A DNA stretch of 64,000 nucleotides. Origin: Escherichia coli (GTDB lineage Bacteria > Pseudomonadota > Gammaproteobacteria > Enterobacterales > Enterobacteriaceae). Positions within the stretch are counted from its first letter, which is position 1. Each line of letters opens with the position of its first letter. The stretch is from NCBI RefSeq assembly GCF_051903065.1, contig NZ_CP178438.1; one strand, 5' to 3'. This document shows positions 58,290 to 58,410 of the stretch, one piece after another. Both the position numbers and the translations under genes were made by a program. The notes under the pieces were generated by a model, which was not told the origin of the DNA, did not search any database, and worked only from the letters and a program-made list of their open reading frames with translations.

Positions 58290-58410
58290 GAATCATTCAA
58301 CTGGCCCGGTTAGTAAAATGCACCATTCACTCGGAAAACTCAACATGTGGAACTATTATACGCCGTCTGGAAAGGGCGTAGCAGTGATATAACAATTTAA
58401 TCGTCTCCCA
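58290..58410 (+). pseudogene. Degenerate, internally deleted copy of the 3' end of a yieH-like HAD phosphatase gene
   Basis: ggcccggttagtaaaatgcaccattcactcgg... aligns with yieH ggtccggtcagcaaaatgcagcattcgcttgg... (about 53705-53765), and the following segment aligns with the yieH stop region. Confidence 0.55.

Follow-up and report, generated by a model that had tools for sequence, protein, structure and literature searches.

The second of the two effector modules in the Escherichia coli islet between yieH and phoU lies inside a broken cbrC gene, and the module opens with the 3′ part of a second yieH copy, here called yieH*, that is fused directly to the decayed 5′ end of cbrC. The islet itself was known already; what is new here is the cbrC 5′ stub joined to a yieH stub, together with a cbrC 3′ stub at the far end of the module. 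The assembly of the islet on the ancestral Escherichia arrangement yieH-cbrC-phoU thus took two steps or more. As to where the second module came from, we consider it somewhat probable that illegitimate recombination linked a diverged yieH-hairpin-effector segment to cbrC and that the module is not the product of a simple local duplication.

The yieH-phoU islet and its two effector modules

In the 64,000-nt stretch of E. coli DNA analyzed here (the window), the region of interest is bounded by the resident intact yieH (53375–54040, plus strand; a 221-aa 6-phosphogluconate phosphatase according to the RefSeq annotation of matching genomes) and by phoU (61452–62177, minus strand). The GC content of the islet is 31% as compared with 51% for yieH, and in K-12 the interval between yieH and phoU is filled by cbrB, cbrC, yieK, yieL and the bgl operon. 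RefSeq names the islet genes espY4, pentapeptide-repeat protein and "type III effector protein". The position between yieH and phoU, the presence of espY4, of a pentapeptide-repeat gene and of a second paralogous effector gene, and a GC content of ∼30% identify the locus as the known Z5211-Z5214, or espY4, islet. Sankar et al. (2009; PMC2646131) described this islet (their "Z locus", type III) between yieH and phoU as an alternative to the bgl-yieIJ island, gave its GC content as 30%, and reported that Z5211 and Z5214 are alike, that the islet genes are without database homologues and that mobility genes are absent. Across 8.2 kb the window is 96.8% identical in DNA to the O157-like strain ERL06-2442, and at least 80% of the length of this 8.2-kb regional query is present in 1079 of 5426 complete E. 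coli genomes.

The effector gene of module 1 is espY4 (54177–56585, minus strand; Z5211 type), which shares 95% amino acid identity with the RefSeq "T3SS effector EspY4" of an O157-like strain. Its paralogue in module 2 (58541–61027, minus strand; Z5214 type) is probably espY5. RefSeq annotates the latter as "type III effector protein" from 60925, and the open reading frame runs about 34–40 codons upstream of that start; over these codons (60926–61048) RefSeq has a separate overlapping "frameshifted hypothetical protein", and other sources predict products of 828–830 aa. The two effector proteins are 34–36% identical in amino acid sequence, with a third-codon-position identity of 43% as against a chance expectation of 32%. 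At residue 67 both carry a WEx5F motif (WEFVRDLF and WEFILDLF), and it is by this N-terminal motif that the EspY family is defined (PMC6313403); translocation of EspY4 by the type III secretion system is covered by literature that the same article cites. Searches of Pfam and NCBIfam returned nothing informative for the effector proteins. Between the modules lies a single copy of a gene for a 395-aa pentapeptide-repeat protein (56887–58074, plus strand, RefSeq annotation) with weak Qnr-type pentapeptide matches.

The initial annotation had proposed that a module was duplicated, and there are indeed two colinear homologous modules, each of which opens with a yieH 3′ end and a hairpin. Families of direct repeats spaced 4360–4445 nt apart run in the same order through both, from the yieH end and hairpin through the effector genes to a conserved 5′/upstream region, repeat D3, which in module 1 (56689–56765) is 74% identical to its colinear counterpart in module 2 (61134–61210). 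Hairpin 1 (54055–54121) is a long imperfect palindrome between the convergent yieH and espY4 genes with a fold of −31.7 kcal/mol (z −6.3, 0 of 200 shuffles), and its copy, hairpin 2 (58415–58481), occupies the interval between the yieH* stub and the second effector gene (−23.6 kcal/mol, z −3.6). The layout from the yieH stop codon to the hairpin is identical in both modules, which indicates that both derive from one ancestral arrangement. Each D3 region also contains a terminator-like hairpin on the plus strand, at 56733–56750 in module 1 and 61179–61194 in module 2. This hairpin (CCAGGGTG..CACCCTGG, then a T-rich run) points away from the effector gene, and both effector genes are thus bracketed by conserved structured elements, the 3′ hairpin on one side and the D3 hairpin on the other.

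As judged by its position and predicted fold, the larger hairpin is most likely a terminator or insulator between convergent genes. Three other identities were considered and rejected. The hairpin is not the native yieH terminator, as its similarity to the sequence downstream of yieH in E. albertii, Escherichia sp. E1V33, K-12, a B2-type strain, E. whittamii and Salmonella arizonae stays within that of shuffles. It is neither a dispersed repeat nor a known RNA, with no more than two copies per genome and three sub-threshold, chance-level matches in Rfam. A by-eye comparison with the core-site consensus of integron attC sites gave no fit on either strand.

The effector genes are mosaics in E. 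coli and differ far more between alleles than does the DNA around them. Between the window and ST648 the second effector has 56% protein identity (56–57% with one further locus included) and 57–85% DNA identity per 150-nt block, and in the C-terminal half of espY4 (54177–55550) identity between E. coli alleles falls to 69–89% in DNA. The stub, the hairpin flanks, the other flanking non-coding DNA and the pentapeptide gene are 91–99% identical between the same alleles, with 91–94% for the stub and the hairpin flanks. The hyper-divergent effector alleles indicate that diverged versions of the island existed and recombined into E. coli. A bolder reading, which we think distinctly improbable, is that the conserved brackets (the yieH end with its hairpin, and the upstream region with its small hairpin) constitute a cassette system for EspY-type effector genes at yieH, in which the brackets would act as recombination anchors or as sites for a hairpin-recognizing enzyme encoded elsewhere. 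Such a system would let lineages swap or stack EspY-type effector genes at yieH, and it would explain why the brackets are 74–94% identical when the genes that they enclose have 34–57% protein identity.

Two records at this locus deserve separate mention. Strain 23CRST031 (NZ_AP045800.1), otherwise 100% identical, has an IS903B inside espY4 (4617–5583 of its locus) that is absent from the window. The 3.1-kb contig JAIJJM010000384.1, from a "Collinsella sp." assembly, contains an E. coli-type adeP end, yieH (98% in amino acids), hairpin 1 and espY4, and is almost certainly E. coli DNA that was wrongly binned with a Collinsella metagenome-assembled genome.

Relics of yieH and cbrC around the second module

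The interval 58290–58410 had initially been annotated as a degenerate copy of the yieH 3′ end, and the likeness is genuine. Local alignment pairs 58299–58355 with 53699–53754 and 58366–58491 with 54006–54132, a few bases off the coordinates first given. The initial annotation had staked this likeness on its significance relative to shuffled sequence; segment A of the stub scores 47 as compared with 16.7±2.2 for 1000 dinucleotide-preserving shuffles (maximum 28; 0 of 1000; z = 14). Segment A (58291–58362, plus strand) corresponds to yieH nt 316–387 and is 73.6% identical to the resident gene. It is followed by a 5-nt deletion joint (58363–58367, plus strand), placed by codon-level mapping, and by segment B (58368–58400, plus strand), which corresponds to the last 33 nt of yieH (nt 634–666) with TAA aligned on TAA. 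Both segments are on the plus strand and keep yieH gene order. The coding part of segment B taken alone gives no signal over chance (16 vs. 15.2; 382 of 1000 shuffles). Its homology follows from its unbroken continuity with the non-coding sequence that extends from the stop codon to the end of the hairpin: the whole segment B-hairpin block has an alignment score of 96, and 54041–54132 and 58401–58491 are 80% identical over 92 nt.

The internal deletion and substitutions that had been proposed are also seen, with ∼241–246 nt of yieH gone between segments A and B and the frame lost. The fragment lacks nt 1–315 and about nt 388–630 of yieH and its segments lie in different frames, so that the earlier description of a gene stub left as a fossil is apt, as is its assignment to a module, of which it forms the left end (module 2). 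In a comparison with YieH alone, 20 of the 24 residues encoded by segment A are the same as in Escherichia, and the yieH*-type peptide reads ...VSKMHHSLGKLNML... A blastn search with the stub gave matches in the loci of 80 species, always at the same yieH position. RefSeq annotation is missing over the stub stretch in nearly all of the genomes listed. The stub occurs in 1089 of 5426 complete E. coli genomes, never apart from the island and in every island variant aligned, and is 88–100% conserved in all island variants examined. The best reading of these results is that a second yieH copy of foreign type left its 3′ part here as the stub, which is dead and now functionless.

Between the stop codon of the pentapeptide gene and the stub lie 216 nt of GC-richer DNA (58075–58290) that are composed of the end of the yieH-cbrC spacer and the start of cbrC. 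The last ∼70 nt of the native intergenic spacer persist as a remnant at 58075–58142 (plus strand; identified by alignment and blastn), which starts directly after the pentapeptide stop codon. They are followed at 58143–58290 (plus strand) by a strongly decayed cbrC (yieJ) 5′ stub comprising nt 1 to ∼148 of the gene (score 116 vs. 19.1±2.2 for shuffles; 0 of 1000), the start codon of which has changed from ATG to GTG at 58143. The alignment partners for spacer and cbrC were E. albertii, Escherichia sp. E1V33, MOD1, K-12 and Pseudocitrobacter. At 58290/58291 the end of the cbrC relic directly abuts the start of the yieH stub; our reading of the alignment finds no clean single microhomology at this joint, with GTTG present twice at the junction in less eroded strains. 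An inverted repeat (TGTCAGGA...TCCTGACA; 58126–58157) spans the region of the mutated cbrC start codon and is kept in all island variants.

On the other side of module 2 the last ∼30 nt of cbrC are found at 61338–61369 (plus strand), as shown by alignment with the terminal part of cbrC and its terminator in Escherichia sp. E1V33 and E. albertii (matched by 1 of 1000 shuffles). Next to this 3′ stub comes the hairpin that those species also have downstream of cbrC, and then, beyond REP-like sequence, phoU. The REP-like palindromic element between the cbrC 3′ relic and phoU (61380–61440) has a weak, sub-threshold resemblance to Rfam naRNA4 on both strands (27.7 and 23.2 bits; gathering score 59.5). 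The DNA to the right of module 2 consists of just ∼130 nt of AT-rich sequence and the last ∼30 nt of cbrC; neither the pentapeptide gene nor the spacer nor the 5′ part of cbrC occurs there a second time. The gene order is yieH-cbrC-phoU in E. albertii and Escherichia sp. E1V33 and yieH-phoU in E. whittamii and Salmonella arizonae. The cbrC relics and the gene order of E. albertii and E1V33 together indicate that the backbone was yieH-spacer-cbrC-phoU. Module 2 and its yieH stub sit in a broken cbrC, on a backbone that is still seen in E. albertii.

In the cbrC 5′ relic each codon position offers 49 sites, of which 13 (first), 14 (second) and 6 (third) carry stub-specific changes. This flat pattern is that of a long-dead gene; working cbrC genes differ from each other chiefly at third positions. 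Stub-specific changes amount to 15–22%, and identity to working cbrC genes is 66–72%. Decay at first and second positions is greater in the cbrC relic (27/98) than in the yieH stub (4/48; Fisher p 0.009, or 0.12 in the well-aligned part), which suggests, though not strongly, that cbrC was already dead when the yieH* piece joined it and that the two relics were not obviously dying together.

The resident yieH is itself a mosaic. Its nt 1–609 are 97–98% identical to non-island E. coli alleles and its nt 610–666 only 67%, which places a recombination breakpoint near nt 609. The last ∼57 nt (53984–54040) encode TELAQLPVLWKARGWNITR in island strains and THLSQLPELWKARGWDITA in non-island strains; the two versions differ at 20 positions, about half of which are synonymous third-position changes by our codon reading. 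Module 1 therefore seems to have brought its own yieH end as well. The K-12-type yieH is 92–95% identical to the window gene in some 60-nt blocks and just 58–75% over nt 70–370; this block is not closely related to any of the yieH genes from 80 enterobacterial species, the best being that of Citrobacter koseri at 76%. Among 5417 matching yieH records, 3309 fall in the 80–90% identity band.

The initial annotation had offered, as one alternative, repeated insertion at a yieH-like target. In this scheme a mobile cassette carrying the 3′ end of its target yieH would have inserted site-specifically more than once, with the hairpin as the recombination site. That both modules open with a yieH 3′ end and the same hairpin agrees with it, as does the alternative ending of the resident yieH, where the last ∼57 nt resemble a target-end replacement. 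The details of module 2 do not: it lies in cbrC and not in yieH, and its stub reaches 350 nt back into yieH, far past the ∼57 nt of swapped end. Furthermore, the searches (NCBIfam for three island proteins, Pfam for the second effector) gave no integrase or recombinase match, there are only two hairpin copies per genome, a third being absent from the right-hand border of module 2, and the metagenome matches include no free or differently located copies. We regard repeated site-specific insertion as extremely unlikely.

Divergence of the stub and the source of module 2

The pattern of substitutions in the stub was analyzed by codon position in an ancestral form of segment A, obtained from the less eroded stub of other strains with differences between the two stub haplotypes polarized by yieH. 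Ancestral segment A differs from resident yieH at 19 of 72 positions, and 15 of the 19 differences are at third codon positions (p 6e-5 against one third); only 4 of its 48 first and second positions have changed. In the raw stubs of four strains, 13–16 of 18–25 differences are at third positions (p 0.0009–0.006 vs. one third). Inclusion of segment B gives a weaker bias, with 21 of 31 differences at third positions (p 0.007–0.07). These tests draw on 24 codons (34 with segment B) and a crude mutation model, and the weights that we give to the different histories are accordingly provisional. An in-frame cbrC-yieH fusion under selection was rejected as the source of the codon bias, as the cbrC frame meets a stop at the joint.

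The initial annotation had the island growing by tandem segmental duplication in situ. The colinear modules and a joint of the form expected for a duplication agree with that proposal, and the third-position bias and the lack of a second right-hand part run counter to it. In such a history the left end of the duplicated unit would have fallen inside yieH and the stub would have been dead from birth. Even if mutation from GC to AT is favored up to fourfold, about 44–53% of the differences in a stub dead from birth are expected at third positions, against which 15 of 19 gives p 0.002–0.02; by our calculation ∼11 first- and second-position and ∼8 third-position changes are expected as compared with the 4 and 15 observed. 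The bias is present in the raw stubs of four strains and survives the fourfold GC-to-AT bias. A likelihood-ratio test likewise prefers selected divergence followed by decay over death from birth (p 4e-5 to 2e-3), with estimates of ∼0.6–0.9 substitutions per site per lineage under selection and of ∼0–0.07 for neutral decay. One figure speaks for death from birth, namely that the total divergence of the stub under the model (0.23–0.31 substitutions per site) is close to the decay derived from the cbrC relic (about 0.16–0.27). On balance we consider a local segmental duplication with a stub dead from birth to be improbable.

The stub is also distant from every yieH with which it was compared. Its identity is 74–79% to Escherichia yieH genes and on average 71% to the yieH genes of 74 other enterobacteria; the same 72 nt of the resident yieH are 88–96% identical to other Escherichia species. 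The third-position distance of the stub to everything is 13–15 of 24, and 13 is the 95th percentile of between-genus pairs. Its third positions are AT-richer than those of the resident gene (13 vs. 6 of 24 by our count), which fits either an AT-richer host genome or biased decay. The third-position bias and this distance together indicate that yieH* was a selected, working gene for most of its separate history.

A working second yieH could also have arisen locally. In an ancient tandem duplication, the unit would have run from upstream of yieH into cbrC, and both yieH copies, the second initially complete, would long have been under selection. Later deletions would then have shortened the second yieH by its 5′ third and an internal piece and would also have eliminated the second pentapeptide gene, along with the spacer and the greater part of cbrC. 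A working second yieH would account for the third-position bias, and the direct repeats are colinear along the whole of the modules; in addition, the joint of the cbrC 5′ part to yieH is shaped like a duplication joint, and neither the effector family nor the hairpin is found outside this locus. At the lower bound of the divergence estimate, this history would be compatible with how far the cbrC relic has decayed, but at the best estimate the relic is about twice too well preserved. At synonymous sites yieH and yieH* are at least as far apart as genes of different genera, and the duplication would therefore predate the Escherichia species, such that many independent losses of the island in other Escherichia lineages and other species would be needed. 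At least three further deletions are required as well. We judge an ancient local duplication to be rather unlikely.

We thus return to the import of module 2 from a diverged lineage, which we prefer because it is the most economical account, with one illegitimate join (cbrC to yieH*) visible. The deeply diverged effector alleles in circulation and the mosaic yieH of K-12 also speak for it. From the islet anatomy, the two cbrC relics, the joint and the codon-position pattern we infer the other-lineage source, the direction of transfer and the recombination mechanism. On the ancestral backbone yieH-spacer-cbrC-phoU, module 1 (hairpin, espY4, upstream region and pentapeptide gene) would have taken the place of the left part of the spacer. 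Module 2 would have come from a diverged lineage with the same hairpin-effector unit located just downstream of a working yieH. The incoming stretch would have begun inside the donor yieH at about nt 316 and an illegitimate join would have fused its left end to cbrC near nt 148. The right end, ∼30 nt short of the end of cbrC, may reflect a second illegitimate join or a homologous crossover further to the right, and the interior of cbrC would have been lost on insertion. Later erosion of the stub would have consisted of the ∼241–246-nt deletion and a few substitutions. Against import stands the layout itself, as the 5′ end of the distal gene joined to the interior of the proximal gene, in the same orientation and 4.4 kb apart, is the exact product of a local tandem duplication. 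A donor has also not come to light, and the hairpin is missing from the yieH loci of 80 other species.

Surveys of genomes and metagenomes bear on both donor and intermediates. None of the yieH genes from the 80 species is near the stub (best 79%, E. albertii). An E. coli allele from strain N64 that reached 83% in blastn was considered as a donor and turned out to be nothing more than an ordinary variant. Just three full-length clusters out of 1.84 billion protein representatives belong to the effector family; by length and identity they match the three forms found at this E. coli locus, and effector protein relatives beyond this locus were not found. The island is absent from the locus in E. 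albertii, E. whittamii, three further Escherichia-labelled genomes and 74 other species. A scan of metagenomes for the conserved stems of the hairpin gave 56 matches from 45 loci, 3 of which had too little upstream sequence to be classified; the remaining 53 had either a resident-type yieH (95–99.9% identical) with hairpin 1 or the cbrC relic with the stub and hairpin 2, and no free or relocated module copies were among the matches. An intermediate with one module, as foreseen by the initial annotation, did not appear in the 5426 E. coli genomes, the 80 other species or the metagenome matches. The pentapeptide gene and spacer occur in 1100 genomes and the stub in 1089–1115, always together. 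The single partial case is strain EFF60, which as a result of an IS1/IS5 deletion (6206–8040 of its locus) lacks the pentapeptide gene and both relics and retains a second effector gene without its 3′ part.

The probable source of the second effector module is a strongly diverged and so far unsampled lineage with the same yieH-hairpin-effector layout. Such a source suggests that related islands form a hidden pool, and this would also explain the extreme divergence of effector alleles in E. coli. The islet has so far been seen as one block of orphan genes that replaced bgl and whose arrival was unexplained; the three relics supply it with a history. This history is relevant to studies of effector repertoires and of the variable yieH-phoU region and leaves general principles unchanged. 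Gene relics that record the assembly of an island are a familiar kind of evidence, and the present case is one of genome archaeology and not of a new kind of system.

Comparison with known systems

The islet described by Sankar et al. (2009; PMC2646131) has the same locus, genes and low GC content as the region analyzed here. That paper treats the islet as one acquired block that replaced bgl, in contrast to the two separate replacements shown by the relics; its text, searched for remnant, truncated, pseudogene and duplication, mentions no yieH fragment, cbrC (yieJ) fragments or repeated hairpin. Our literature searches found no other paper on the structure of this locus.

Elements that integrate into genes can duplicate the 3′ end of their target, as do e14 or phage 21 in icd and islands in tRNA genes. 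As in icd, a gene 3′ end is present twice at the yieH locus, with one functional gene that has an alternative end and one displaced relic. Unlike integration of the icd type, the yieH locus has neither an integrase nor an att-like repeat on the far side, and the relic is located not at the outer boundary but inside another gene.

In classical bacterial genetics the joint of a tandem duplication is that of the end of the repeated unit with its start. The direct colinear repeats of the two modules and the position of the 5′ part of the distal gene ahead of the interior of the proximal gene are what such a duplication leaves behind. The near-saturated synonymous divergence, the selected rather than neutral divergence of the stub and the missing right-hand part of the second unit distinguish the islet from it.

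In homology-facilitated illegitimate recombination, known from naturally transformable bacteria, one homologous flank anchors the foreign DNA and the other end is joined without homology. At the yieH-phoU islet, the right-hand join may have been a homologous one, and the mechanism is deduced from its end product. The likeness to this process lies in the non-homologous join of cbrC to yieH*, in the location of the other end beside core DNA (the cbrC 3′ end and phoU) and in the loss of the cbrC interior.
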